The notes beneath the pieces were generated by a model. That model did not search any database and was not told the DNA's origin. It was given only the letters and a program-made list of their open reading frames with translations. Position numbers and translations under genes: made by a program. Positions 1 to 35,707 of a stretch of 64,000 bases of DNA are shown in pieces. Origin of the DNA: a virus; the IMG/VR virus record IMGVR_UViG_3300034415_000120; one strand, 5' to 3'. Within the stretch, counting starts at the first letter, position 1; every line of letters begins with the position of its first letter.

Positions 1-63
1 TCAATTTTGGGAGAGTGACGGTCTTAGAACTGTAGGGTATGGGTTCAAGTCCCATAATTCCCA
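1..63 (+). tRNA. 3' portion of a tRNA, truncated by the window edge. T-arm ATGGG-TTCAAGT-CCCAT with acceptor 3' strand AATTCCC; anticodon stem ACGGT/ACTGT with an atypical 6-nt loop CTTAGA.
   Basis: Perfect 5-bp T-stem with a GGTTCAAGTCC T-loop at 39-55; acceptor 3' strand 56-62 plus discriminator A63, no encoded CCA. Anticodon stem 18-22/29-33 pairs but its loop is not canonical, so the isotype is unclear (TAG, i.e. Leu, is possible). Confidence 0.45.
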
Positions 64-7798: not shown

Positions 7799-9025
7799 GT
7801 GAATGCAAATATAAAAGTAAAAAGATGTGAACAAGTAATTATTAGAAAGAATCATCCTAAATTTAAAATGATAGATCAACAGTGCTTTTGCTCTAAGAAT
7901 TTGTATAATGAAGCAAATTATGTATTACGTCAAGAATTTATAAACAATGATAAATACATAAGCTATTATGATATGAATAGAGAATTTAAAACACATGAGA
8001 ATTATAAACTTACATTCAGTCAACCTGCAAATTGTACTTTAAGATTGTTGGATAAAAACTGGAAATCTTATTTTAATGCAATTAAAGATTGGGGTAAAAA
8101 TCCCAATAAATATTTAGGTAAACCAAAACTTCCAAAATACTTAAAGAAAGACGGAAGGTTCATATGGATGATTCCAAATAATCAACTTCATTATAACTAT
8201 GAAAAGGGGACGATTCATATAAGTAATCGTTTAGTAAATGATTATGATTGGAAATGTCGTTGCTTAGGCAGAATAATTCAAGTTAGATTTGTTCCAAGAG
8301 GATCTTGTTATGTGATGGAAATTATCTATGAGACGGAAATTCCAAATACAAATAAAAAACCTAAGAGTATAGCAGCTATTGATTTAGGCGTAAATAATCT
8401 TGTAACTATGACAAATAATATCGGATTAAATCCAATTATTATTAACGGCAAGGGAATTAAAAGCATAAATCAGTGTTATAATAAAAGACTTGCAAAAGAA
8501 AGATCAATGCTGAAAATACGACATAATAAAGATTGGTCAAAGAAATTAGATATAATTACTTTTAAAAGATTTCAGAGAATAAAGAATTACATGCACAATA
8601 CAAGTCATTACATTGTAAGTTGGTGTATTGAAAATAACATTGACACATTAGTAGTTGGTAAAAACAACAAATGGAAACAAGAATCTGAGATGAATAAGAA
8701 ATCTAATCAGAATTTTATAATGATTCCGTACCAGATATTATTACAACAACTTAAATATAAGTGTGAAAATGTTGGAATTAATTACATTGAGCAAGAAGAA
8801 AGTTATACATCTGGAACAAGTTTCTTAGATGAAGAAAATCCAATTAAAGAGAATTATAATAAGAATAGACGTATTCAAAGAGGATTATTCAAAAGTAATT
8901 CTGGGCTATTAATTAATAGTGATGTAAATGGATCATTTCAGATTATGAAAAAAGTATTCCCAAATGCGATTAGTCGATATGGGATAGAGGGTGTTCTAAC
9001 CCCTATAGTTATAAATGTGGCATAA
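7799..9025 (+). CDS. tnpB: TnpB-like (IS200/IS605 OrfB family) protein, degenerate. RuvC-I Asp retained (AAIDLGV); RuvC-II Glu replaced (DTLVVGKNN vs canonical ..vvED.L..); the Zn-finger CxxC...CxxC is absent; the RuvC-III region (NSDVNGSFQI) is retained.
   Basis: Direct alignment against the intact TnpB at 25637 in this window. Overall TnpB architecture, with YTS motif ESYTSGT and DxNAAxNI-like SDVNGSFQI. Confidence 0.75.
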   Translation: MNANIKVKRCEQVIIRKNHPKFKMIDQQCFCSKNLYNEANYVLRQEFINNDKYISYYDMNREFKTHENYKLTFSQPANCTLRLLDKNWKSYFNAIKDWGKNPNKYLGKPKLPKYLKKDGRFIWMIPNNQLHYNYEKGTIHISNRLVNDYDWKCRCLGRIIQVRFVPRGSCYVMEIIYETEIPNTNKKPKSIAAIDLGVNNLVTMTNNIGLNPIIINGKGIKSINQCYNKRLAKERSMLKIRHNKDWSKKLDIITFKRFQRIKNYMHNTSHYIVSWCIENNIDTLVVGKNNKWKQESEMNKKSNQNFIMIPYQILLQQLKYKCENVGINYIEQEESYTSGTSFLDEENPIKENYNKNRRIQRGLFKSNSGLLINSDVNGSFQIMKKVFPNAISRYGIEGVLTPIVINVA

Positions 9026-9844: not shown

Positions 9845-10405
9845 ATGTTAATTAGAAGTCAAAATGGAACAAAATTAATAGATATGTCTAGTAAAACAAT
9901 ATCAGTCGATAAATCAGGTTCAACTTTACCATATAAAAATGGATATGATGTTAAAATTTTATATGCAAATAGTTCTGTTTGGCTAGGAGAATATGATAGC
10001 AAAGAAAAAGCATTTAAAGTATTGGATATGATTGGCGAAGCACATCATTATTTTGAATCAGGATTTGAGATGGAAGTTTTTCAGATGCCACAAAATGATG
10101 ACGTTAATGTATCTGGAGTGAAATGTAAAGAAAATCCCACATTAACCGCAAATGAAAAATTATTTCTTGATTTGATTAAAGAAGAATATACATATATTGC
10201 AAGAGACAAAGATGGTCTATTGGCGGTTTATCCTAGAAAGCCTGAGAAAAAATTGACATATTGGTTACTTGCAGATAGCCCAAATACTGCAAGAGATTTA
10301 TATACTAGAGCATTAGATGTTGGTTTTGACTTCATTAAATGGGAAGACGAAGAACCTTGGTTAATTGAAAATTTGAAGAAGTTGGAGTTGAAAGATGAAA
10401 AATAG
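9845..10405 (+). CDS. hypothetical protein, paralog A (conserved C-terminal module ..FLD..EY.YI..DK...L.V......FDFIKWEDEEPWLIENLKKLELKDE)
   Basis: Shares about 80 aa of C-terminal similarity, and nucleotide similarity 10330-10400 vs 10745-10815, with the next gene. Confidence 0.5.
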   Translation: MLIRSQNGTKLIDMSSKTISVDKSGSTLPYKNGYDVKILYANSSVWLGEYDSKEKAFKVLDMIGEAHHYFESGFEMEVFQMPQNDDVNVSGVKCKENPTLTANEKLFLDLIKEEYTYIARDKDGLLAVYPRKPEKKLTYWLLADSPNTARDLYTRALDVGFDFIKWEDEEPWLIENLKKLELKDEK

Positions 10406-11142: not shown

Positions 11143-12126
11143 TTGAGTCATTTAGTTGAAAATAATATTTTATCAGAGAATGGATTAAGAGTATTAAGTC
11201 TATTTGATGGTATATCATGCGGTAGAATTGCATTGGATAGAGCTGGGTTTGAAATAAATGATTATTATGCTTATGAGATTGAACAAAATGCAATCAAGAT
11301 AAGTAGATATAATTACCCATCAATTCATCAATGTGGTGATGTATTTGAGGAAGATTTTAGTAAATATGAAGGTATTGATTTGTTGATTGGAGGCAGTCCA
11401 TGCACCTTTTGGTCAAGTTCCAAGTGTTCAAAAACGGCAAAACATAAGAGGGAAGTTAAACCAGAGGGTGATGGATGGAATTTATTTATGGAATATGTAA
11501 GAGCATTACACGAATCTAAACCAAAATATTTTCTATATGAGAATAATTATAGGATTGATGATTCTATACAAGCTGCAATTACAGAAAATTTAGGTGTTGA
11601 ACCTGTTCTTCTCGATAGTCAGTTAATTTCGGCTCAAAGACGCAAGAGATTATATTGGACAAATATTCCAATAAAAGGAGAACCAGAAGATAAAGGAATT
11701 TTAGTAAAGGATGTGATTACAGATGATTATGAACTAATCAAACATTTTGATGATAGGATAAAAAATACATTAGTCAAATGTGAGAATTACATAAAGTATG
11801 ATTTGAGTGGTAAAGGACATTATTCTCAACAGGATAGGATGTATTTTCTTGATAATAAAGCACCAACTGTTCCGAGATGTAGAACTGAAACTAAATTTAA
11901 TGTTTGGTTAGGTGGTGAAACATATAAGAAAACTTGTCCTGTTGAGATAGAAAGACTTCAAACATTACCAGATGGATATACAGAATTTGGTATGAATGAA
12001 AATGGAAGTGTTGTAAAAATGCCTAAGACAAGAAGATTTGAAGCTATTGGAAATGGTTGGACTGTTGATATGATAGCTTGGATATTTAGTTTTATGAAGG
12101 AGAAATATAATGCAGATAACAGCTAA
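11143..12126 (+). CDS. DNA (cytosine-5)-methyltransferase
   Basis: Motif I LSLFDGISCG; PC motif GGSPCTFWSS; ENV-like YFLYENN; motif VIII QRRKRLYW. TTG start. Confidence 0.8.
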   Translation: MSHLVENNILSENGLRVLSLFDGISCGRIALDRAGFEINDYYAYEIEQNAIKISRYNYPSIHQCGDVFEEDFSKYEGIDLLIGGSPCTFWSSSKCSKTAKHKREVKPEGDGWNLFMEYVRALHESKPKYFLYENNYRIDDSIQAAITENLGVEPVLLDSQLISAQRRKRLYWTNIPIKGEPEDKGILVKDVITDDYELIKHFDDRIKNTLVKCENYIKYDLSGKGHYSQQDRMYFLDNKAPTVPRCRTETKFNVWLGGETYKKTCPVEIERLQTLPDGYTEFGMNENGSVVKMPKTRRFEAIGNGWTVDMIAWIFSFMKEKYNADNS

Positions 12127-12976
12127 AAGTTATTTTAGTGGAGCAGGAGGGATGGATTTAGGAATAGAGGAATCTGGAATTAACATAATTGAATCATATG
12201 AGATAGATAAAAAGTGTTGCGATACTCTGAGAAAGAATTTTAAACATCATGTAAATGAAGCGGATATTACACAGATTACCGTTCTTGATCAGAATGACGC
12301 AGATGTATATATTGGTACATTTCCATGCACACGGTATTCAACTATTGCTGATATTTCAGGCACAAGAACAGGAGATGATTTATTTTTACATTTCTTTAGA
12401 CATATTGCTTTGGCTCAACCAGAAATGTATGTAGTAGAAAATGTTCCTGGAATGCTTAAATTTAAAGTAGTTATGGAAGCATTAACAAAACTACCTGATT
12501 ATTATGTAAGAGTTGAATGTCCTGTTAATGCAAATATGTGGCTACCACAAGAAAGAAAACGATTGATTCTAATTGGAAGTAAAAAACCATTTACCAATTT
12601 TGATTATCCTGATTCTCAACCGTTAAGGCTTAAAGATATTATTGAAAAGGATGCTTCGATTGATATTCCACAATATGTATATAATCGCATCAATGGAAAG
12701 TATAGAGATAAACCAATTATTTCAGATCCAGACAATGATGATCTTGCTCCAACTTGTGTAGCACATTACGCAAAAGATAAAGGAACAAGATTGATTAAAG
12801 ACGGACAGAGAATTAGACCATATACAGTAAAAGAATATGCTAGATTACAAGGCTTTCCAGATTGGTTTGAGTTTTGTGGAACAGATAATGATGCTTATAG
12901 ACAAATTGGTAATGCTGTTGCTGTTCCAATGGGACGTTGGATTGGTAAACAGATTGTAAAATATTTTAATTCATAA
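12110..12976 (+). CDS. DNA (cytosine-5)-methyltransferase (second; overlaps the previous by 17 nt)
   Basis: Motif I YFSGAGGMDLG; PC motif GTFPCTRYS; ENV VVENVPGM; QERKRLILIG. Confidence 0.8.
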   Translation: MQITAKSYFSGAGGMDLGIEESGINIIESYEIDKKCCDTLRKNFKHHVNEADITQITVLDQNDADVYIGTFPCTRYSTIADISGTRTGDDLFLHFFRHIALAQPEMYVVENVPGMLKFKVVMEALTKLPDYYVRVECPVNANMWLPQERKRLILIGSKKPFTNFDYPDSQPLRLKDIIEKDASIDIPQYVYNRINGKYRDKPIISDPDNDDLAPTCVAHYAKDKGTRLIKDGQRIRPYTVKEYARLQGFPDWFEFCGTDNDAYRQIGNAVAVPMGRWIGKQIVKYFNS

Positions 12977-15580: not shown

Positions 15581-16945
15581 ATGAATTACGAAGATTTTCT
15601 AAAACAAAAGGATTATATTCTGGAAAGTAGCGGATTTAATATTGATAAAGATAAATTAAATCCCATGCTATTTGACTTTCAGAAAGATGTAGTAAGATGG
15701 GCGTTAGCAAAAGGTAAAGCTTGTATTTTTGCAGAGTGTGGGCTTGGCAAAACGCCAATGCAATTATCATGGGCGCATCAAGTACATCTACATACGGGCG
15801 GTAAAGTTTTGATTCTTGCACCTCTATCGGTTGCGGATCAGACAAAGAGAGAAGCTGAAAAATTCCATTACAATGCAAAAGTATGTGAGAAACAGGAAGA
15901 TTGTATTGATGGAATTAATATTACAAACTATGAGAAACTAGATAAATTCGTAGCAAATGAATTTGTTGGAGTAGTCTTAGACGAGAGTTCAATTCTTAAA
16001 TCCTACACTGGTAAAGTGAGGACTTCTATTATCGAGAATTTCCAAAATGTTCCCTATAAATTAGCTTGTACTGCGACACCTGCTCCAAATGATTATATGG
16101 AGTTGGGAAATCATTCTGAATTTTGTGGAGTTATGACACGTTCAGAAATGTTATCAATGTTCTTTGTTCATGATGGTGGTCAAACATCTAAGTGGAGATT
16201 AAAAGGTCATGCAAAAGATGTATTTTGGCAATGGATGGCAAGTTGGTCTGTATTTATTGATAATCCATCAAATTTAGGATATGACGGTACAGATTATGAA
16301 TTACCTAATTTGAATATTTATGAAATTATAGTTGATGGAGATGAACCAATCACTGAATCACTTACATTAACAGAGCGTAGAAATGCAAGAAAAGATACTC
16401 TTGAATTAAGATGTCAAAAAGCAGCAGATTTAGTAAATAATTCAGATGAACAATGGTTAGCCTGGTGTGATCTTAATGCAGAAGGTGATAGATTAAATGA
16501 ACTGATTGAAGAAAGTAAAAACGTTCAAGGAAGTGATAAGAATAAATACAAGAGTGAAACAATGCTATCATTTTCTGATGAAAAATTAAAATGTCTTATC
16601 AGCAAGCCACAGCTCGCAGGCTACGGCATGAATTGGCAGAATTGCCACAATGTTATTTTTACTGGACTTTCTGATAGTTTTGAGCAGTATTATCAGGCTG
16701 TAAGAAGATGTTGGCGTTTTGGTCAGACTCAAGAAGTTAATGTATACATAATCATTTCAGCAAAAGAAGGTTGCGTAAAAGAGAATATTGAAAGAAAACA
16801 GTTAGATTTTATCACTATGAGGGATGCAATGATTAATCTAACTAAAGAAATTACTAAGAAAGAGCTTAAATCAACGTGTAGGCTTACTACACCATATGAA
16901 GCAAATACAACAATGAAATTACCAAACTGGGAGGAATTCAAATAA
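15581..16945 (+). CDS. SNF2/DEAD-like family helicase (compact, 454 aa)
   Basis: Motif I AECGLGKT; motif II VVLDESSILK; motif III CTATPAPN; motif VI QAVRRCWRFGQ. Confidence 0.75.
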   Translation: MNYEDFLKQKDYILESSGFNIDKDKLNPMLFDFQKDVVRWALAKGKACIFAECGLGKTPMQLSWAHQVHLHTGGKVLILAPLSVADQTKREAEKFHYNAKVCEKQEDCIDGINITNYEKLDKFVANEFVGVVLDESSILKSYTGKVRTSIIENFQNVPYKLACTATPAPNDYMELGNHSEFCGVMTRSEMLSMFFVHDGGQTSKWRLKGHAKDVFWQWMASWSVFIDNPSNLGYDGTDYELPNLNIYEIIVDGDEPITESLTLTERRNARKDTLELRCQKAADLVNNSDEQWLAWCDLNAEGDRLNELIEESKNVQGSDKNKYKSETMLSFSDEKLKCLISKPQLAGYGMNWQNCHNVIFTGLSDSFEQYYQAVRRCWRFGQTQEVNVYIIISAKEGCVKENIERKQLDFITMRDAMINLTKEITKKELKSTCRLTTPYEANTTMKLPNWEEFK

Positions 16946-17853
16946 TGATGAACGTAATTGATCAAGCAGTAGCAAACAGATATGCACTTTATCATGGAGA
17001 TAGTGTAGAAATTACTAAGGAGATTCCAGATAATAGCATCCACTACACTATCTTTTCCCCACCATTTTCACAGTTATACGTGTACTCTAATTCAGATAGA
17101 GATATGGGTAATTGTAAAGGGGATGAAGAATTTTACAATCATTTCAAATATCTTGCAAAAGAATTATATAGAATTACAATGCCTGGACGACTTCTGAGTT
17201 TTCACTGTATGGATTTACCTCTTATGAAATCAAGAGATGGTGTAATTGGACTAAAAGATTTTCCTGCGCTCATGCTTAAAATCTTTCAGGATTGTGGATT
17301 CATCTACCATAGTAAAGTAACTATTTGGAAGAATCCTGTTACAGAAATGCAAAGAACAAAAGCACTTGGGCTTTTACATAAACAGATTAAGAAAGATAGT
17401 AGTATGAGTCGTCAAGGACTTCCAGATTATGTGATTACGGTTAGGAAGCCCGGTGATAATCCAGAACGAGTTGAACACACAAATGAATCATTTCCTGTTA
17501 ATGTATGGCAAAATTACGCTTCACCTGTATGGATGGACATTAGACAGAGTGATACATTACAGAGAAAATCAGCAAGATCTGAACAAGATGAGAAACATAT
17601 TTGTCCATTACAGCTTGAAGTAATTCAGAGATGTATTGAATTATGGACAAATCCAAACGATATTGTGTTTGATCCGTTTGGTGGAATTGGTTCTACTCCA
17701 TATGTTGCACTTAAATTAGGAAGAAGAGGAATTGCAAGTGAATTAAAAGATAGCTATTTTGAGCAGTTAAAGAAAAATGTAGAGTCTGTGGCTGCCGAAG
17801 AACCAGAAGTATTTCCAGTTGGAGAAAAGAGTATTGAGGATGTAGTCGCATAA
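16945..17853 (+). CDS. beta-class DNA N6-adenine/N4-cytosine methyltransferase
   Basis: Motif IV IFSPPF precedes motif I FDPFGGIGSTPYVALKLGRRGIASEL (PF01555-like order). Start overlaps the helicase stop (TAATGATG). Confidence 0.8.
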   Translation: MMNVIDQAVANRYALYHGDSVEITKEIPDNSIHYTIFSPPFSQLYVYSNSDRDMGNCKGDEEFYNHFKYLAKELYRITMPGRLLSFHCMDLPLMKSRDGVIGLKDFPALMLKIFQDCGFIYHSKVTIWKNPVTEMQRTKALGLLHKQIKKDSSMSRQGLPDYVITVRKPGDNPERVEHTNESFPVNVWQNYASPVWMDIRQSDTLQRKSARSEQDEKHICPLQLEVIQRCIELWTNPNDIVFDPFGGIGSTPYVALKLGRRGIASELKDSYFEQLKKNVESVAAEEPEVFPVGEKSIEDVVA

Positions 17854-19057: not shown

Positions 19058-19614
19058 GTCAGATGGTTAATTTAATGAACACATGTGTTTTGGTCAAAAC
19101 ACGAAAAGAATATGAAGATATTTTAAATGAAGCTGAAAAGCAGGGATTTCACTGGTATAAAAAAGATGATGGTAAACCATTTGAACAATCCACATTTCCA
19201 GATATTTTAAAATTCTCATCAGATAATATTATTTGTAGAAGAAGTGGAATTTCTTTGGGTTATACTTTCTATGAAGCATCAGAACTCCTCGGCACAAAAG
19301 AAATGACAGCGAGAGAGTTTGCTGAGTGGATTGCAGATATAGGCAAGTGCGGTGAACGTAAATGTGCAGAATGTGTATTGAATAAAATGAATACTGAGTG
19401 TAGCTTTAGTTTATGTATTCCACGCAACTGGAAAGGCAATATTGATGAACTTCTTGAAATTGCGTTATTGAACAGAACTACAGTTTTATCACCAGAAGAG
19501 GAAGCAATTGATACGATTGAAAAATTTATTGAGAATCCAGATCACACAACATTAGACGATGAATTTGTAAATGCGTTGAAGTTTGCGGTGGAGAAGTTAA
19601 AAGAGGTGAAGTAG
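19054..19614 (+). CDS. hypothetical protein (Cys cluster CGERKCAECVLNKMNTEC)
   Basis: ORF with translational coupling. Confidence 0.45.
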   Translation: MSQMVNLMNTCVLVKTRKEYEDILNEAEKQGFHWYKKDDGKPFEQSTFPDILKFSSDNIICRRSGISLGYTFYEASELLGTKEMTAREFAEWIADIGKCGERKCAECVLNKMNTECSFSLCIPRNWKGNIDELLEIALLNRTTVLSPEEEAIDTIEKFIENPDHTTLDDEFVNALKFAVEKLKEVK

Positions 19615-19836
19615 ATGATAAAAATTAGCAAAATTGCCTTTGAAGCATTAAAAGATACGGACGGAAATGCTTCAATAAAACCAGTGGAATGGTGGAGAAA
19701 AAATAAGCTGGCATGTATTTGGTGCATATTGTGTCTACTGGCAGAGATTCCAATAGTAATATTAAGATTTGTGTTTATGGTAATTTGTTTTATTCCACAT
19801 AAAATTTATGAGTATTTAGAAGACATGTCTTTTTAA
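19615..19836 (+). CDS. small membrane protein
   Basis: TM stretch LACIWCILCLLAEIPIVILRFVFMVICFI. Confidence 0.4.
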   Translation: MIKISKIAFEALKDTDGNASIKPVEWWRKNKLACIWCILCLLAEIPIVILRFVFMVICFIPHKIYEYLEDMSF

Positions 19837-19848
19837 GAGGTGAAGTAG

Positions 19849-20301
19849 ATGGAGAGATTAACACTTGAAAATGCTATTAAATACATTAAAGAAGTAGAGC
19901 GAAAGAACAGAATAAACAAAGAGAGAAACACCATCATTATTCCTAACAGTTTTATCGGTAGTAAAGATTGTGCGGATAAATACGGACAAGTTGCTAAATG
20001 GCTAGAAAAACTAAAAGACTATAATGACTTAGAAGAACAAGGATTGTTGTTGAAACTTCCAATACCATTAAACACTACTGTTTATACAATATATACAAAA
20101 CAATGGTGTTATTATGACGATAACTGTATGGAAGATATAGAATATAAATGTATGAATGGGGAGTTTTGCGAAAATCAAAAAGTAAGACACTATCTTCATA
20201 TTGAAAAATTCAGTGTTCCAATGATTAACTTTATAAATAAAACTGTATTTTTAACCCGTGAAGAAGCCGAAAATAGATTGAAGGAGTTAGAAAATGAATA
20301 A
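19849..20301 (+). CDS. hypothetical protein
   Basis: ORF with RBS AGAGGTGAAGTAGATG. Confidence 0.45.
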   Translation: MERLTLENAIKYIKEVERKNRINKERNTIIIPNSFIGSKDCADKYGQVAKWLEKLKDYNDLEEQGLLLKLPIPLNTTVYTIYTKQWCYYDDNCMEDIEYKCMNGEFCENQKVRHYLHIEKFSVPMINFINKTVFLTREEAENRLKELENE

Positions 20302-20509
20302 TGTGTATCTAGTAACAAGACAGAAAGATAATGTATTGGTTTCAGTTATAAGAAATAAATTAGATGATACTTATTCTTTTGTAAACTTGACAAAAGGGCA
20401 TATATGCACTTGTAAATTTAATACCATTGAAGATGCGGTAAAAGATATGCAGATTAAAAAAGAAAATGGTGAGATTATAGATTATTTTGAGGTGAAAAAT
20501 GATAAGTAA
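20294..20509 (+). CDS. hypothetical protein
   Basis: ORF. Confidence 0.4.
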   Translation: MNNVYLVTRQKDNVLVSVIRNKLDDTYSFVNLTKGHICTCKFNTIEDAVKDMQIKKENGEIIDYFEVKNDK

Positions 20510-20777
20510 TTTATTTGGAAGTTTATTCGAAGGAATTGGAATAATAACAAGTGTATTACTTGTTTATTCTGTTACTTTATTTCTTTATTCAAAATTTGAT
20601 ATTTGGCGTAAAAATAAATGTAAAATTAAATTGCTTTGTCGTCCACATGTGTATGAGATTAATTGGCTTTTTGAAGAAGATGGAGAATGTGAATTAAAAT
20701 GTAAAAAATGTGGTAAAACAAAACATATGTATATTGATGTAAAGTCATTTGAAAAATTTTTAATAAAGAGCAAATAG
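20499..20777 (+). CDS. membrane-anchored Zn-ribbon protein
   Basis: N-terminal TM (GIGIITSVLLVYSVTLFLY) plus CRPH...CKKCGK. Confidence 0.4.
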   Translation: MISNLFGSLFEGIGIITSVLLVYSVTLFLYSKFDIWRKNKCKIKLLCRPHVYEINWLFEEDGECELKCKKCGKTKHMYIDVKSFEKFLIKSK

Positions 20778-20788
20778 GGAGTTAGAAA

Positions 20789-21052
20789 ATGGATCGAAGA
20801 AATAGAAAGTATTATTTAGTGGAATTACCATATTGTCACAATGCATGTGTGAAAAAATTAAAAGAAATTAGAACTGTAAAAATTTCAAATCCTTATGATT
20901 TTGATAAAGATAAGGAATATGGATATGTAAATTGTTTAATTGGATTTTCCAATGATGTAGAAAATTCTGTTCTTACAGTTTTAAATTCAAAATGGGAATA
21001 TGGTTATAAAGCAAAGTATAGAGAAATTACTAAAGAAATGATTGGACATTAA
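20789..21052 (+). CDS. hypothetical protein
   Basis: ORF with RBS GGGAGTTAGAAAATG. Confidence 0.4.
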   Translation: MDRRNRKYYLVELPYCHNACVKKLKEIRTVKISNPYDFDKDKEYGYVNCLIGFSNDVENSVLTVLNSKWEYGYKAKYREITKEMIGH

Positions 21053-21097
21053 AGTTAAAACGGCAGTTTCAAGGACAAAAAATGAAAGGTGCGTAAA

Positions 21098-21604
21098 ATG
21101 AAAGTTGGAATAACAGGACACAGAAATCAAAGATTAGGTTTGCCAGAAGATGAAACAGATGAGAAATGGACTCCAATTCAGTTTTGGATTATAGACGAAT
21201 TGAGTAAATTTATAAAGACTTGTGCAGATAATAATGAACCACTTGATTTATATACAGGAATGGCTTCTGGGAGTGATATTGCATTTGCGATCGCAGGAGT
21301 GTTAATGCATTACATAAATAGCATTAAATTACACTGTATTCTTCCTTGTAAAGATTATAACTCAACACATAAATATTATAAATTTTTAAAGCTAAAAGCA
21401 ACTGAATGGGTTGAATTATCAGATAAATTTTATAAAGGCTGTGATAACGTAAGAGATCAATACATAGTTGATAAGTGTGATGTTTTGCTAGCAATTTGGG
21501 ATGGTAATAAGTCTGGTGGTGTTTGGTCTACCATTCGTAAAGCTCAAAAAGCAGGAAAGAGAATTATTTATTGTCCAAAAGAAGTACTTGAATTTCACAA
21601 CTGA
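21098..21604 (+). CDS. YpsA-like SLOG-family (DUF1273-like) protein, putative nucleotide-binding
   Basis: N-terminus MKVGITGHRNQRLGL, internal TGMASGSDIAFAIAG and DVLLAIWDGNKSGG resemble B. subtilis YpsA (MKVLAITGYKP.., ISGQLGVE.., DGLLLLYD..) as recalled from memory. ATG 21098 has the better RBS spacing. Confidence 0.4.
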   Translation: MKVGITGHRNQRLGLPEDETDEKWTPIQFWIIDELSKFIKTCADNNEPLDLYTGMASGSDIAFAIAGVLMHYINSIKLHCILPCKDYNSTHKYYKFLKLKATEWVELSDKFYKGCDNVRDQYIVDKCDVLLAIWDGNKSGGVWSTIRKAQKAGKRIIYCPKEVLEFHN

Positions 21605-21612
21605 AATTATTT

Positions 21613-21807
21613 ATGGAGAATAAGATGAGTGAAACAGTTAAAGCAAGGAATAGAAATACAATGAAAGAAGCAAAATCAAAAGCCGAAAGAATTGGATTTG
21701 TACCTTCTGCGTGTTTGGAATGTCTGATGTATCAAGCTGGATTAAGACCAGGTACAAATAATCATTGTAGTAAATGTGTCGATGGAATAGGTATATTTCG
21801 TGGATAA
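21613..21807 (+). CDS. small hypothetical protein
   Basis: ORF. Confidence 0.35.
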   Translation: MENKMSETVKARNRNTMKEAKSKAERIGFVPSACLECLMYQAGLRPGTNNHCSKCVDGIGIFRG

Positions 21808-21841
21808 AATGTTGTTTTCATGGATAAGAAAGGAAAAATCT

Positions 21842-22744
21842 ATGCCAATAAAAGATGATTTAGGAACTAGAATGAAAACTTTTTATGAGGAAATTCCAAA
21901 AACAAAACTTATGCGCCGCTGCCCAGTTGCTATCAGAATTGACGGAAAATCATTTCATACATTTACAAGAAAATTTGAGAAGCCATTTGATGAAGTTTTA
22001 ATTGAATCTATGCAGAAAACAATGAAATATCTTTGTGAAAATATTCAAGGATGTGTATTGGGATATACCCAGTCTGATGAGATTACATTGATTCTTGTTG
22101 ATTATAAGAAATTAAATTCTTCTGCATGGTTTGATTATGAAGTTCAGAAAATGACTTCTATATCAGCTTCTATGGCAACACTAGCCTTCAATGATTTTTT
22201 TAAAAAAGGTATAACAAAAGAAAATAGTGCCTTTACTGATGAATGGTTGGACAATGGAGATTTTAATCCAAAATATAAAGATGAAGAATTAAATAAATTA
22301 TGGATAACTCATAAAAGAGCATCCGAAAAAGGTGCAATGTTTGACGCACGTTGCTTTAATATTCCGAAAGAAGAAGTCACAAATCTTATTTACTGGCGAC
22401 AATTAGACGCTTCTCGTAATTCAATTCAAATGGTAGGTCGAGCTAATTTTTCTCATAAAGAACTTCAAAATAAATCATGCAACCAGATTCAAGATATGTT
22501 AATGGAACAGAAAGGTATTAACTGGAACGATCTTCCTATATATCAAAAAAGAGGAAGTTGTTGTATTAAAATTAAAGATAAAATTGATGAAGTGATGGTA
22601 AACGAACAACAAGAATTTGGAGAAGATAAGGTAACAAAGATAGTTTCCATAGAAAAGAGTCATTGGATCATTGATAAAGAAATTCCTATTTTTAAAGGTG
22701 ATAATAGAAAATATATTGATAAGTTGATTAATGTAGGAGAATAA
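21842..22744 (+). CDS. Thg1-like protein (tRNA-His guanylyltransferase family, 3'-5' nucleotidyltransferase)
   Basis: VAIRIDGKSFHTFTRKFEKPFDE matches the Thg1 motif ([24 protein letters not shown]). CVLGYTQSDEITLIL matches IVIAYGQSDEYSFVF. LIYWRQLDASRNS matches YLSWRQADCHINN. Both catalytic Asp are present. The alternative start at 21800 is less favoured; an RBS precedes 21842. Confidence 0.8.
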   Translation: MPIKDDLGTRMKTFYEEIPKTKLMRRCPVAIRIDGKSFHTFTRKFEKPFDEVLIESMQKTMKYLCENIQGCVLGYTQSDEITLILVDYKKLNSSAWFDYEVQKMTSISASMATLAFNDFFKKGITKENSAFTDEWLDNGDFNPKYKDEELNKLWITHKRASEKGAMFDARCFNIPKEEVTNLIYWRQLDASRNSIQMVGRANFSHKELQNKSCNQIQDMLMEQKGINWNDLPIYQKRGSCCIKIKDKIDEVMVNEQQEFGEDKVTKIVSIEKSHWIIDKEIPIFKGDNRKYIDKLINVGE

Positions 22745-23010
22745 AATCTTATGACAGAACAAGAAATGATTGAATATTTAAAATCAACAGGATTATACGA
22801 ATAACATGAAGATTTCTTTTATGAACAAGAAATGATAAATACAAATAAAACAGTTCCAATTAGTGATCTTATTGAAAGATTTATTGAAATTGATAAAGAA
22901 TTTGAAGGAATGCCCTGGAATATATTACAAATTCTTACAAATATCAATATGATTATTCCTGTTGAGGATAGAAAATAACATTGAAATGCGTCTTTCATGA
23001 GGTGAGAAAT

Positions 23011-25636: not shown

Positions 25637-26758
25637 GTGGAAAGAGCATTTAAGTATAGAATTTATCCAACAAAGAAACAACAAAAGTTAATTCAGAAAA
25701 CATTTGGATGTTGTCGATTTGTATATAATTATTATCTCAATATGAGGAAAGAATCATATGAAAAAGATAAAATATCTGTAACTTATAATATGTGTTCAAA
25801 AGATATGACAAGTTTGAAGAAACAATTGGAATGGTTGAAAGAACCAGATAAAGACGCTTTGCAAAAATCATTGAAAGATTTAGATATGGCATATCAGAAG
25901 TTCTTTAAAGAACATACAGGATATCCAAAATTCAAATCTAAAAAGACCAGATATAAGTCTTATAGAACTAGCTGTACAAATAACAATATCAGATATGATA
26001 ACAGAAAGATCAAACTTCCAAAAATCGGATGGATTAAAACCAAGGATAAACAAATTCCACAAGGTAAAATATTGAATGCTACAATTTCACAAGAACCAAA
26101 TGGACATTATTACTGTTCATTATGTTGTTCTGATGTAGAATTTCTACAATTCACAAAAACAGATAAAAATATTGGTATTGACTTAGGAATCTGTGATTTT
26201 GCAATATTTTCTGATGGAACGAAAATTGAGAATCCAAGATTTTATGAAAAATCAGAAAACAAACTCGTTAAATTACAACGTGAATTATCAAGAAAAACAA
26301 TTGGTAGTAATCGTTGGGATAAAGCAAGAATTAAAGTTGCAAATTTACAAAAACATATTTCAAATCAACGTAAAGATTTTTTACAAAAATTAACCACAGA
26401 TATTGTAAAGAATTACGATGTGATCTGCATTGAGGATTTAGATATTATATCTATGAAAGAAACAGATTCTACTATTCGTAATAAACGAGTTGGTGATGTT
26501 TCATGGTCAGAGTTCAGAAGAATGCTTACATATAAAACTCAATGGTATGGAAAAGAATTATCTGTCATAGGTAGATTCTATCCATCTTCTCAGATTTGTC
26601 ATATTTGTGGAAATAAGGATGGGAGAAAATCAGAAGATATTAGATTCTGGACTTGTCCTAATTGTAAATCTGAATTAGACAGAGATATAAACGCAGCAAT
26701 AAATATTCTCAATGAAGGTTTGAGAATAAGAACCGTAGGAACTACGGGGATAGCCTAG
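25637..26758 (+). CDS. tnpB: TnpB (IS200/IS605 OrfB family RNA-guided endonuclease), apparently intact
   Basis: N-terminus MERAFKYRIYPTKKQQKLIQKTFGCCRFVYNYYL. RuvC-I GIDLGI; RuvC-II CIEDLDI; Zn finger CHICGN...CPNCKS; RuvC-III DRDINAAINIL. Confidence 0.85.
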   Translation: MERAFKYRIYPTKKQQKLIQKTFGCCRFVYNYYLNMRKESYEKDKISVTYNMCSKDMTSLKKQLEWLKEPDKDALQKSLKDLDMAYQKFFKEHTGYPKFKSKKTRYKSYRTSCTNNNIRYDNRKIKLPKIGWIKTKDKQIPQGKILNATISQEPNGHYYCSLCCSDVEFLQFTKTDKNIGIDLGICDFAIFSDGTKIENPRFYEKSENKLVKLQRELSRKTIGSNRWDKARIKVANLQKHISNQRKDFLQKLTTDIVKNYDVICIEDLDIISMKETDSTIRNKRVGDVSWSEFRRMLTYKTQWYGKELSVIGRFYPSSQICHICGNKDGRKSEDIRFWTCPNCKSELDRDINAAINILNEGLRIRTVGTTGIA

Positions 26759-29615: not shown

Positions 29616-30260
29616 GTGAAAGTATTAGGATTATTTGCAGGTACAAGATCTATTGAAAAAGCATTTGAATCCAGAGGACATGAAGTTTTTAGTGTAGAAT
29701 GGAATAAAGATTTTAAAAACATTGATTTATATGATGATGTTAATAATATTACAGCGAAAGATATATTAGAGAAATTTGGGCATCCAGATGTAATCTGGGC
29801 GAGTCCTGATTGTACAACATTTTCTATTGCGGCTATTAGTCATCATAGAAGAAAGAATCCAGAAACAGGTAATCTTGATCCTGTAAGTGATTATGCGAAA
29901 TTCTGTGATAAAACTGATCAACACGTTCTATCCTTAATCAAGGAATTAAACCCAACTTTTTATTTTATTGAAAACCCTAGAGGTGGTATGAGAAAGATGA
30001 CATGGATGCAAGGTTTACCACGTTATACGGTGACTTATTGCAAATACGGAGATGACAGGATGAAACCTACTGATATTTGGACAAATCATCCTAATCCTAA
30101 ATTCTTACCTATGTGTAAAAATGGTGATCCATGTCATGTTTCTGCTCCAAGAGGTAGTAGAACTGGAACACAAGGACTAAAAGGTAGTGTTGAGAGAAGT
30201 AAAATACCACAGAAATTGTGTGAGCATATTGTAGATATTTGTGAAGAATATATTAAGTAA
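29616..30260 (+). CDS. small DNA (cytosine-5)-methyltransferase-like protein (214 aa)
   Basis: Motif I VLGLFAGTRS; PC motif SPDCTTFSIA; ENV-like YFIENPRGGM. Short for a canonical C5-MTase. GTG start. Confidence 0.55.
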   Translation: MKVLGLFAGTRSIEKAFESRGHEVFSVEWNKDFKNIDLYDDVNNITAKDILEKFGHPDVIWASPDCTTFSIAAISHHRRKNPETGNLDPVSDYAKFCDKTDQHVLSLIKELNPTFYFIENPRGGMRKMTWMQGLPRYTVTYCKYGDDRMKPTDIWTNHPNPKFLPMCKNGDPCHVSAPRGSRTGTQGLKGSVERSKIPQKLCEHIVDICEEYIK

Positions 30261-30842: not shown

Positions 30843-31859
30843 TTGCTGAGTAAAGCCAATAGTATAGAAGAATTATTAGAAAGTTGCCCTAAGAATCAAA
30901 CAATTGGAGATAACCTGGTTAGGGCATGGTCAAAGATTAATAGTAGTAAGTATAAAAATATTCTATGTAGCATCTCAGGTGGTTCTGATAGTGATGTAAT
31001 GTTAGACATTGTGTGGAGATGCGATAAAGACAATAAAGTTACATATGTGTGGTTTGATACAGGTCTTGAATATCAAGCTACAAAAGATCATTTGAAATAT
31101 CTTGAAGAGAAATATAACATAGAGATTCATCCATATAAAGCAATTAAACCAATTCCTTCGTCCTGTAAAAAATATGGACAACCATTCATTTCTAAGCAAG
31201 TCAGCGAATTTATCCAACGATTACAAGCACATAATTTCAAGTGGGAAGATGAAGATTTTGATACCTTGATGAAAAAATATCCAAAATGTAAATCTGCACT
31301 AGCATGGTGGTGTAATGCAAAAGGCAATGGAAGTAGTTTTAATATTTCTCGTAATAAATATCTGAAAGAATTTATGGTTGCAAATCCACCCACGTTTAAA
31401 ATATCAAATAAGTGTTGTAAATATGCTAAGAAAGATGTTATGCATAAATGTATTTCAGAGTCCAATTATGATCTTGACATATATGGTGTAAGAAAAGCAG
31501 AAGGTGGTTCAAGAGCAACTGCGTATAAATCATGCTTTGATGAAACAGATGCAGGATGTGATAATTATAGACCTTTATTCTGGTATAAAGATTCCGACAA
31601 GATTGATTATGAAGGAGCTTATTTTGTTGAGCATAGTAATTGTTACACTGAATATGGATTAAAACGTACTGGATGCGCTGGTTGTCCATTTGGTAGAGAT
31701 TTTGAATATGAATTAGAAGTTATTCGGAAATATGAATCGAAATTATTTAAAGCGGTGAATAATATATTTGGAGAATCTTATGAGTATACAAGAAGATATA
31801 GAGAATTTTGTAAACAGATGAAGGAGAAAGAAAAGGATAACAATGAAATGTGTAAGTAA
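30843..31859 (+). CDS. PAPS reductase-family PP-loop protein (phage 'phosphoadenosine phosphosulfate reductase'-like)
   Basis: PP-loop SISGGSDSD; GVRKAEGGSRA motif; C-terminal Cys cluster CAGCPFG. TTG start. Confidence 0.65.
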   Translation: MLSKANSIEELLESCPKNQTIGDNLVRAWSKINSSKYKNILCSISGGSDSDVMLDIVWRCDKDNKVTYVWFDTGLEYQATKDHLKYLEEKYNIEIHPYKAIKPIPSSCKKYGQPFISKQVSEFIQRLQAHNFKWEDEDFDTLMKKYPKCKSALAWWCNAKGNGSSFNISRNKYLKEFMVANPPTFKISNKCCKYAKKDVMHKCISESNYDLDIYGVRKAEGGSRATAYKSCFDETDAGCDNYRPLFWYKDSDKIDYEGAYFVEHSNCYTEYGLKRTGCAGCPFGRDFEYELEVIRKYESKLFKAVNNIFGESYEYTRRYREFCKQMKEKEKDNNEMCK

Positions 31860-34599: not shown

Positions 34600-34764
34600 T
34601 GTGGGTTATCTTTTTACTAAGTGCTGTTGGTTTTGCAATTGGCGCACTTGTATTATTTTCAATTGGTTGGTTAATGCTCCATAAGATTGAAATGCACATT
34701 AATCGTCAAGATGATGATTATGAAAACGAAAAAGAGAATAAAAAGAAAGAGGACAAAGAATGAA
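34600..34764 (+). CDS. small single-TM protein (54 aa, below the ORF cutoff) with an acidic/lysine C-tail
   Basis: MWVIFLLSAVGFAIGALVLFSIGWLML...; overlaps the start of the SPFH gene (operon partner). Confidence 0.4.
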
Positions 34765-35707
34765 GAAAAAATCAGCAACAAGTAAAGTAGTGGCAGGATT
34801 AGTAATTGCATGTGCAGTAATTGGAGGGATTTTTACAATTTCTCACATTAAGATTATTGGTACTGGTAAGGTGGGTATAACCTATACGTATTCATCTGGG
34901 GTAAAAGATGAGTTATTAAAGCCAGGTGCGCATTTTATTCCACCAATGGAATATATGAAAGAATTTTCAACAAGTAATGAGATTCTTGTGTTATCAAAAG
35001 ATAGCAGAGATGGAAGTAAAGATGATGATTCTTTTAAGGTTGCAACATCAGATGATGCTAGTATTGCAATTAGTTTCCAAATGACATACCGATACATTGA
35101 AGATCAAGTAATTGATACATATAAAAAATTCAAAGGCATGGATGGAACAGATATTGTTGAAAATCGTGTTAAGACAGTTTTAAAATCTAAAATTTCTGAG
35201 GTCACAACTGATTATTCTATGATGGATATTTATTCTGGTAATCGTGCGCAACTTAACGAAGCGATTACAGAATATCTAAATAAAGACTTTTCTCAAAAAT
35301 ACGGCATTGAAGTTCTCGATGCATCTATTATTGACGTTCACCCAGATAAGAAATTAAAAAAGGCAATTGATAATCGTGTTACCGCACTACAGGAAAAGCA
35401 ACAAGCTCAAGCTGAACAGGAAAAAGTAAAAGTACAAAAACAGACTGAGCAGTTACAAGCCGAAGCAGATGCAAATATTGAGATTACAAAAGCGCAAGCT
35501 GATGCAGAGAAAACAAAAATTAAAGCGGAAGCCAATGCTGAAAAGACTAGAATTGCAGCGGAAGCACAAGCAAAGGCGAATAAAGAATTGAGTTCTTCCA
35601 TTACTGATGAGCTTATCAGAATGAAAGAAGCCGAAGCGCATTATAAGAATGGTTGGGTTACTGTACAAGGTGCAGGCACAACTGTAGTGGACGCAACAGA
35701 GAAATAA
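34760..35707 (+). CDS. SPFH/band-7 (stomatin/prohibitin/HflC-like) membrane protein
   Basis: N-terminal TM. SPFH core (IPPMEY...). C-terminal alanine/glutamate coiled coil (AEQEKVKVQKQTEQLQAEADANIEITKAQADAEKTKIKAEANAEKTRIAAEAQAKANKEL) typical of HflK/C-like proteins. Confidence 0.7.
   Translation: MKKKSATSKVVAGLVIACAVIGGIFTISHIKIIGTGKVGITYTYSSGVKDELLKPGAHFIPPMEYMKEFSTSNEILVLSKDSRDGSKDDDSFKVATSDDASIAISFQMTYRYIEDQVIDTYKKFKGMDGTDIVENRVKTVLKSKISEVTTDYSMMDIYSGNRAQLNEAITEYLNKDFSQKYGIEVLDASIIDVHPDKKLKKAIDNRVTALQEKQQAQAEQEKVKVQKQTEQLQAEADANIEITKAQADAEKTKIKAEANAEKTRIAAEAQAKANKELSSSITDELIRMKEAEAHYKNGWVTVQGAGTTVVDATEK

Follow-up and report, generated by a model that had tools for sequence, protein, structure and literature searches.

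Thg1 and the Thg1-like proteins (TLPs) form a superfamily in which three carboxylates are conserved and two of them bind Mg2+. In the TLP of Bacillus thuringiensis (BtTLP), these carboxylates are D30, D75 and E76, and the residues R28, E12 and R131 position the incoming nucleotide (PMC3701042). Every bacterial and archaeal TLP tested prefers the templated repair of 5'-truncated tRNAs, independently of the anticodon (PMC6471195). Thg1 in phage was noted in 2010, the Thg1 of Bacillus phage Bc431v3 was highlighted in 2013, and a comparative study of jumbo phages from 2021 presents Thg1 as the tRNA 5'-end-restoring enzyme of phage RNA-repair systems (PMC7824862). Here, we describe a TLP encoded in the IMG/VR virus record IMGVR_UViG_3300034415_000120, analysed over a stretch of 64,000 nucleotides that we refer to as the window. 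Both the presence of TLPs in phages and their reading as tRNA-repair enzymes are already found in the literature and in annotation resources. What is new is an abundant gut-phage clade of TLPs marked by two insertions, and no new kind of system.

The phage TLP, its active site and its relatives

The TLP gene lies on the plus strand at 21842..22744 and encodes a protein of 300 amino acids (aa). Its reading frame is open from a GTG at 21800 to 22744 (314 aa), and the start used by the gene callers, as well as by an identical database protein (P0001), is the ATG at 21842, which is preceded by AAAGGA; residue numbers are counted from this ATG throughout. A first-pass annotation of the sequence had recognized the Thg1 family from the blocks RIDGKSFHTF, YTQSDEITL and YWRQLDA, which begin at residues 32, 75 and 184, and this assignment stands. 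Pfam Thg1 (PF04446) matches at E=2.2e-29 with 102.5 bits against a cut-off of 29.2, and PHROG 4717, named 'tRNA-His guanylyltransferase', matches at 1.5e-87. The best solved structure in a search of the Protein Data Bank is BtTLP (4KGK, 1.4e-58), and the two share 38% identity from end to end (E=1e-66). Judged on sequence, these scores lie far beyond chance, and no unrelated family was assigned to the reading frame. Of the two Pfam models proposed for checking the family, the second, Thg1C (PF14413), reached 21.6 bits and stayed under its cut-off of 26.3; residues 164-243 and 272-296 align with the C-terminal region of BtTLP at 1.7e-29.

The catalytic Asp/Asp/Glu set is intact on alignment, the check that the first-pass annotation had proposed. 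D34, the first metal-binding carboxylate, stands in the RIDG motif (codon 21941..21943, plus strand) and corresponds to D30 of BtTLP and D29 of human THG1, and D79 and E80 of the QSDE motif (codons 22076..22081, plus strand) correspond to D75/E76 of BtTLP and D76/E77 of the human enzyme. R32, E16 and R170 align with R28, E12 and R131 of BtTLP, and S78 and K103 with S75 and K96 of yeast Thg1, where all equivalences are taken from pairwise alignment and not from structure. E16, R32, D34, S78, D79, E80, K103 and R170 do not vary among 55 aligned relatives; K47, which aligns with another conserved Thg1/TLP position, is K or R in the relatives. One relative that is 78% identical to the window protein (P0034) reads RVKNK instead of RIDGK and QSNE instead of QSDE.

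Where eukaryotic Thg1 has its anticodon-reading motif HINNLYN, the window protein has YWRQLDASRNSIQM, as in BtTLP, so that the TLP-type 'YWRQLDASRNS' takes the place of HINNLYN. Human and yeast Thg1 match the protein at about 1e-11, human THG1 at 3.7e-11 and in its N-terminal part only. The much better match to BtTLP (1.4e-58 versus 3.7e-11) and the absence of HINNLYN place the window protein in the TLP subtype and not with bona fide Thg1, and its sequence is that of an intact enzyme.

Two insertions, both absent from BtTLP and from the Bacillus-phage TLPs, set this protein apart. Insertion 1 (about aa 123-163; 22208..22330, plus strand) lies between the palm and the C-terminal half and comprises 41 residues, compared with 6 in BtTLP. 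Insertion 2 (about aa 244-271, ~28 residues; 22571..22654, plus strand) extends the C-terminal beta-hairpin. Both are present yet hypervariable in the gut-phage clade, insertion 2 in length as well as sequence, whereas strong conservation is seen elsewhere in the protein. In the archaeal MaTLP, the corresponding hairpin touches the T-arm of the tRNA and takes part in measuring the acceptor stem (PMC6471195), so that insertion 2 could, by analogy, tune substrate recognition. AlphaFold2 was run twice, with 29 and with 55 relatives (60-92% identical) in the alignment; the mean predicted local distance difference test score (pLDDT) was 49.7 and 54.9 and the predicted template modelling score was below 0.3, with the catalytic core unmodelled. 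Within these otherwise poor models, insertion 1 is predicted as a helix-loop-helix (pLDDT 83-90) and insertion 2 as a long hairpin with strands at residues 241-253 and 265-277.

How widespread are such proteins? By tblastn, 163 phage records out of 50,697 encode a TLP homologue, in many cases already labelled tRNA-His guanylyltransferase. They include phages of Bacillus (46), the Prevotella Lak phages (15) and phages of Caulobacter (13) and Mycobacterium (11). In several mycobacteriophages (matches H89, H92, H94 and H95), a feature that overlaps the TLP match, and is possibly the TLP gene itself, is labelled 'tRNA nucleotidyltransferase'. Close relatives of the window TLP occur on at least 264 IMG/VR contigs, mostly 100-200 kb in size, so that the gene is conserved over hundreds of phage contigs. 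More than 8000 TLP proteins from metagenomes were matched, the best 120 of which are 70-100% identical to the window protein, in part encoded on contigs of 150-210 kb, and close relatives are found on phage contigs of 100-210 kb. This wide distribution shows that the gene is under selection. The window TLP falls into a separate gut-metagenome clade whose members are 60-92% identical and carry both insertions; when a mixed profile was used to look for further homologues, the gut clade alone came up once more. The nearest TLP of an isolated phage is 45% identical. Together with the dedicated PHROG family and the published record since 2010, these numbers show that the first-pass description of TLPs as rare in viruses was overstated. 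A clade that is so abundant in gut phages and keeps its catalytic residues is a reasonable system for asking what a 3'-5' polymerase does in bacteria.

Probable repair of tRNA 5' ends and competing functions

What would such an enzyme do for a phage? We consider it probable that the TLP restores or completes the 5' ends of tRNAs, of the host or of the phage, by templated 3'-5' addition and thereby sustains phage translation; the proposal builds on the family's sequence features and on analogy with characterized TLPs. The enzyme would activate a 5'-monophosphate RNA end with ATP or GTP (adenylylation or guanylylation) and then add nucleotides in the 3'-to-5' direction by two-metal catalysis, with D34 and D79 holding the ions. 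As Watson-Crick template it would use the 3' strand of the acceptor stem. In this way, tRNAs that have lost 5' nucleotides would be restored, or a nucleotide at position -1 would be added, and the completed tRNAs would keep the translation of phage genes going in the infected cell. A counter-defence role is plausible and has already been published as a prediction. Alternatively, the phage could profit from quality control where its tRNA arrays are densely packed; in one related locus (L052), a tRNA-Pro abuts a tRNA-His with a spacer of 0-1 nucleotides (nt).

Isolated phages that carry a TLP are large and rich in tRNA genes (20 in PHZU0001, at least five in Fnu1), and in 13 loci of relatives, tRNA arrays are no more than 10 kb away from the TLP. 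Other RNA-processing enzymes are encoded by some of these phages: Fnu1 has an RNA ligase, the Caulobacter phage CcrColossus encodes a CCA-adding enzyme 6 kb upstream of its TLP (L140 12603-13757 and 20001-20840), and relatives of the window phage encode Tpt1/KptA just upstream of the tRNA described next. No annotated tRNA gene is listed in the 40-kb stretch around the CcrColossus TLP.

The first-pass annotation had tied its tRNA-repair proposal to a tRNA at the start of the window. Rfam confirms this tRNA as a fragment (1..63, plus strand, 30.2 bits), namely the 3' 63 nt of a 74-nt gene that is cut by the window edge; the whole gene is found in four relatives (L087-L090) at 9898-9971 and scores 55.7 bits. 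It is a single and unusual tRNA, with a perfect acceptor stem and T-arm and an atypical 6-nt anticodon loop, CUUAGA, on the stem ACGGU/ACUGU. As the loop has only 6 nt, this tRNA may not decode normally. ARAGORN found no tRNA in the window, and Rfam detected none in the 64 kb besides the edge fragment. The whole gene (from L087) is labelled 'tRNA-???' by ARAGORN, and similar '???' tRNAs are present in L047 and L065. In the syntenic phage MT835469.1, introduced below, a normal tRNA-Met(CAU) is found in a similar place, upstream of the region that both phages share.

Several points weigh against tRNA repair as the function. Apart from the single, atypical tRNA, the window offers little of a repair pathway: no RNA ligase, polynucleotide kinase/phosphatase or CCA-adding enzyme was found by Pfam among its 43 open reading frames (ORFs). 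The TLP is dispensable, since MT835469.1 does without it. The first-pass annotation had suggested looking for 5' mismatches in phage tRNAs, and no such signature emerged: in the related loci, Fnu1 and a Bacillus phage, the acceptor stems of 63 of 69 distinct tRNAs are fully paired, so that systematic 5' mismatches are lacking. The two large lineage-specific insertions, one of them in the hairpin with which MaTLP measures tRNA, could change the choice of substrate, and the AlphaFold2 models are too poor to check the fold. We know of no host defence or nuclease that shortens tRNA 5' ends, and our literature search found no paper with an experimental test of a phage TLP.

The rival that survives best is a dedicated role in tRNA-His maturation, in which the TLP would add the -1 nucleotide to a phage tRNA-His that lacks an encoded G-1:C73 pair, a templated U-1 where position 73 is A, to yield a tRNA chargeable by the histidyl-tRNA synthetase (HisRS) of the host. 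The phage tRNA-His genes themselves lend some appeal to this idea. We compared 11 types of phage tRNA-His gene (L052 5572-5645, L084 2908-2981, L092 40195-40268, L098 43206-43279 and L103-L110), and 10 of them have no encoded G-1:C73, the exception being Arthrobacter phage Mimi with G-1/C73. A73 is found in gut phages, in Fusobacterium phage Fnu1 and in Bacillus myoviruses and siphoviruses. In the gut phages L052, L084 and L093, U-1 pairs with A73, and the TLPs of L052 and L084 are 63-64% identical to that of the window. The tRNA-His of Fnu1 has an unpaired G-1 opposite A73, and that of Bacillus phage PHZU0001 has C-1, C1:G72 and A73; the same gene is found in other Bastille-group phages at 86-100% identity. 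Hence no tRNA-His examined in a TLP-encoding phage (L052, L084, L093, Fnu1, PHZU0001) has G-1:C73, although C73 is described as universal in Bacteria (PMC6471195). Furthermore, BtTLP, which is about 70% identical to the Bacillus-phage TLPs, places U-1 opposite A73 in yeast and supports growth there (PMC6471195).

However, the missing G-1, which the first-pass annotation had proposed to look for, is real but not specific to phages with a TLP. The Bacillus siphoviruses MrDarsey and Nate have the same A73 tRNA-His without G-1 and are not among the Bacillus TLP matches listed, and the C73 types with U at -1, from five T4-like phages, have no encoded G-1 either. The T4-like phages are taken here to lack a TLP; absence of the gene from such control phages was judged from the matches listed and not from whole-genome searches. 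The tRNA-His sample is small and carries no phylogenetic correction. An exact-pattern scan gave three contigs, and BLAST is poor at locating more. In addition, neither the window nor the 10 kb upstream of it in relatives showed a tRNA-His, nor did the complete genome of MT835469.1, and only 2 of 85 related loci have one within 10 kb of the TLP. In vitro, TLPs prefer truncated tRNAs over full-length tRNA-His (PMC6471195). Because phages with and without a detected TLP alike lack G-1:C73, and no tRNA-His was seen in the stretches of the window's lineage that were examined, we keep tRNA-His maturation as a rival and not as the lead, and regard it as unlikely.

A more pointed version, which we put forward as a speculation with rather poor prospects, is that phage TLPs complete an unusual tRNA-His identity: templated addition of U-1 to an A73 tRNA-His would create an acceptor stem of 8 base pairs closed by U-1:A73. 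Such a stem is already hard-coded in some gut-phage tRNA-His genes. If this were true, it would provide the first natural substrate for bacterial TLPs and would also suggest that BtTLP came from a phage. A phage or prophage origin of BtTLP may be considered in any case because of its identity of about 70% to the TLP of a Bastille-group Bacillus phage (L097 18640-19371 versus 4KGK).

It is also conceivable, if improbable, that the substrate is not a tRNA at all and that the TLP extends or repairs other small RNAs or phage transcripts, or makes a nucleotide product with its GGDEF/Cas10-like palm. Certain TLPs, Dictyostelium TLP4 among them, are presumed to use RNAs other than tRNA (PMC6471195), and the Thg1 palm is homologous to those of cyclases and Cas10. 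The two hypervariable insertions lie in regions that possibly contact the substrate, and the lineage of the window phage is poor in tRNA genes. On the other hand, the protein aligns over its full length with the tRNA-repairing BtTLP, including the fingers and the C-terminal region, the residues for activation and transfer are conserved, and no cyclase-type partner or effector was found nearby by PHROG or PADLOC. Repair of tRNA 5' ends is the function that we continue to favour.

The SLOG neighbour and the accessory cassette

Upstream of the TLP, on the same strand, lies a gene for a YpsA/YoqJ-like SLOG protein (21098..21604, plus strand) of 168 aa, counted from the ATG at 21098 in a reading frame that begins at 21089. 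Its match to Pfam YpsA, at 27.3-27.4 bits, is just under the cut-off of 27.7. Because 31 of 32 relatives match YpsA at E<=1e-3 and the profile of the relatives matches the YpsA structure 2NX2 at 1e-4 (residues 3-149), the family assignment made in the first-pass annotation is sound at the level of sequence. One relative carries the name 'phage-like protein YoqJ', and no NCBIfam model fits either the SLOG protein or the TLP. Between the two genes, the ORF listing shows a Cys-rich 64-aa ORF (21613..21807, plus strand) with a CxxC...CxxC pattern, possibly a zinc ribbon. It has no family match in Pfam, PHROG or NCBIfam and no homologue near the TLP in the 85 related loci.

The first-pass annotation went further and combined the SLOG protein and the TLP into a two-gene, tRNA-centred counter-defence module in which the former would sense or bind a nucleotide and the latter would repair nuclease-damaged tRNAs. 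The genes are indeed co-directional and separated by only ~240 bp, with a single small ORF in the gap, and the arrangement recurs in L003 with a SLOG protein that is 98% identical. Two partner tests were carried out, a tblastn search of 12 window neighbours against the 85 TLP loci and a clustering of every ORF that lies up to 5 kb from the TLP in the same orientation, in 86 loci. In 11 of the 85 loci, a SLOG homologue is present at up to 10 kb from the TLP, but the adjacency is not conserved: it is directly upstream in the window and L003 alone and sits 0.7-5 kb downstream, at variable distances, in the other 10. The TLP P0006, which is 92% identical to that of the window and is shared by several loci, follows a SLOG gene or, in L001 and L002, an adenylosuccinate synthase gene. 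No neighbour family is common to more than 29 of the 86 loci (34%), so the TLP has no conserved partner. Fnu1 and PHZU0001, isolated phages with a TLP, show no SLOG match, MT835469.1 lacks both genes, and no PADLOC model matches the SLOG protein, the 64-aa ORF or the TLP. Moreover, viral YpsA-like SLOG proteins, predicted to degrade signals of the cyclic ADP-ribose (cADPR) type, occur independently in 19-31% of medium and jumbo phages. The module is thus already disfavoured, and we give it hardly any credence; the SLOG gene is an independent accessory gene and a chance neighbour of the TLP. Mitochondrial-type tRNA 5' editing was rejected, given the fully paired acceptor stems (63/69) of the phage tRNAs.

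The gene context is best explained if the TLP is an accessory gene on its own, placed in a hypervariable region of early genes. The window is syntenic from 2.7 to 64 kb with 'Bacteriophage sp.' MT835469.1 from human faeces (32-92 kb of that record), which, together with the IMG/VR contigs described above, bears out the phage-like nature of the element. The TLP, the 64-aa ORF and the SLOG gene are absent from MT835469.1, and the proteins encoded on either side of them are 67-94% identical. The missing stretch corresponds to 19600-23000 of the window, compared with the MT835469.1 pieces from L086 about 49100 to L100 about 2835. Because all three genes are missing together while the flanks stay alike, the segment from 19.6 to 23.0 kb behaves as a swap-prone, replaceable accessory cassette. 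According to the ORF listing, the genes between 20 and 24 kb are tightly packed on the plus strand; a scan for promoters and terminators gave nothing above chance expectation.

The integrase encoded upstream in relatives and the presence of TLPs that are 45-67% identical in genomes of Lachnospiraceae and other Clostridia, including one complete Lacrimispora chromosome, make it most likely that the element is a large temperate phage of gut Clostridia. The window encodes replication and nucleotide-metabolism proteins (DnaB-like and RecD2 helicases, an NAD-dependent ligase, ThyA and NrdDG), as well as several DNA methyltransferases, Gp157, YopX and two TnpB genes. The TnpB/IS605 OrfB-type genes lie at 7799-9025, with OrfB_IS605 and Cas12f1-like TNB domains, and at 25637-26758, 2.9 kb downstream of the TLP. 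Genes for DNA modification are densely represented (11143-12976, 16945-17853, 29616-30260 and 30843-31859), with two adjoining C5-cytosine methyltransferases, an N6/N4 methyltransferase, a truncated C5 methyltransferase and a protein with a PAPS-reductase domain that shows weak similarity to BrxP/SspD. A gene of the SPFH/prohibitin family is found at 34760-35707, and another (L092 21134-21943) stands three genes from the TLP in Fnu1. In some relatives, the block upstream of the edge tRNA (L087 7222-9551, L089 6452-9551) contains the RNA 2'-phosphotransferase Tpt1/KptA, which is variably present and is a second RNA-end-processing enzyme in the lineage of the window phage. The same block encodes a PemK-family toxin with a helix-turn-helix (HTH) neighbour, GmrSD_N proteins and the integrase.

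Comparison with known systems

Finally, we would like to place the locus beside the systems it resembles. The SLOG protein shares the fold family (PF06908) and the motifs TGHR...RL, GMASGSD and WDG..SGG with B. subtilis YpsA (2NX2) and SPbeta YoqJ. The similarity is low, with a profile E-value of 1e-4, and YpsA acts in cell division and oxidative stress, whereas viral SLOG proteins are predicted to act on ADP-ribose-derived signals; nothing links a YpsA-like SLOG protein to tRNA. Dictyostelium TLP3 is a TLP with a demonstrated role, refilling the 5' ends of mitochondrial tRNAs after mismatch removal (PMC6471195). Unlike the phage tRNAs, of which 63 in 69 have fully paired acceptor stems, its substrates need genome-encoded 5' mismatches.

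The eukaryotic Thg1 enzymes, human THG1 (3OTB) and yeast Thg1, belong to the same fold family and have the carboxylates in common with the window TLP, as well as the activation-then-transfer chemistry predicted for it. The match to human THG1 is weak (3.7e-11, in the N-terminal part), and since the window TLP has no HINNLYN, neither specificity for tRNA-His nor the untemplated addition of G-1 opposite A73 would be expected of it. Much closer are the phage TLPs of PHROG 4717, such as Bc431v3 gp143 and Fnu1 gp147, which are of the same family, 40-45% identical to the window protein, annotated as tRNA-His guanylyltransferase and found in large, tRNA-bearing tailed phages; the window TLP differs from them by its place in a separate gut clade with two insertions. 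The nearest biochemical proxy is BtTLP (4KGK/4KGM), for which templated repair of 5'-truncated tRNAs and addition of U-1 opposite A73 have been described (PMC6471195). BtTLP is a protein of 245 aa compared with 300 in the phage, where a 41-residue palm-fingers insertion and a hairpin extension of ~28 residues have been added to a core that retains the three carboxylates, the equivalents of R28, E12 and R131, and the RQxDAxxNS motif of its bacterial counterpart.

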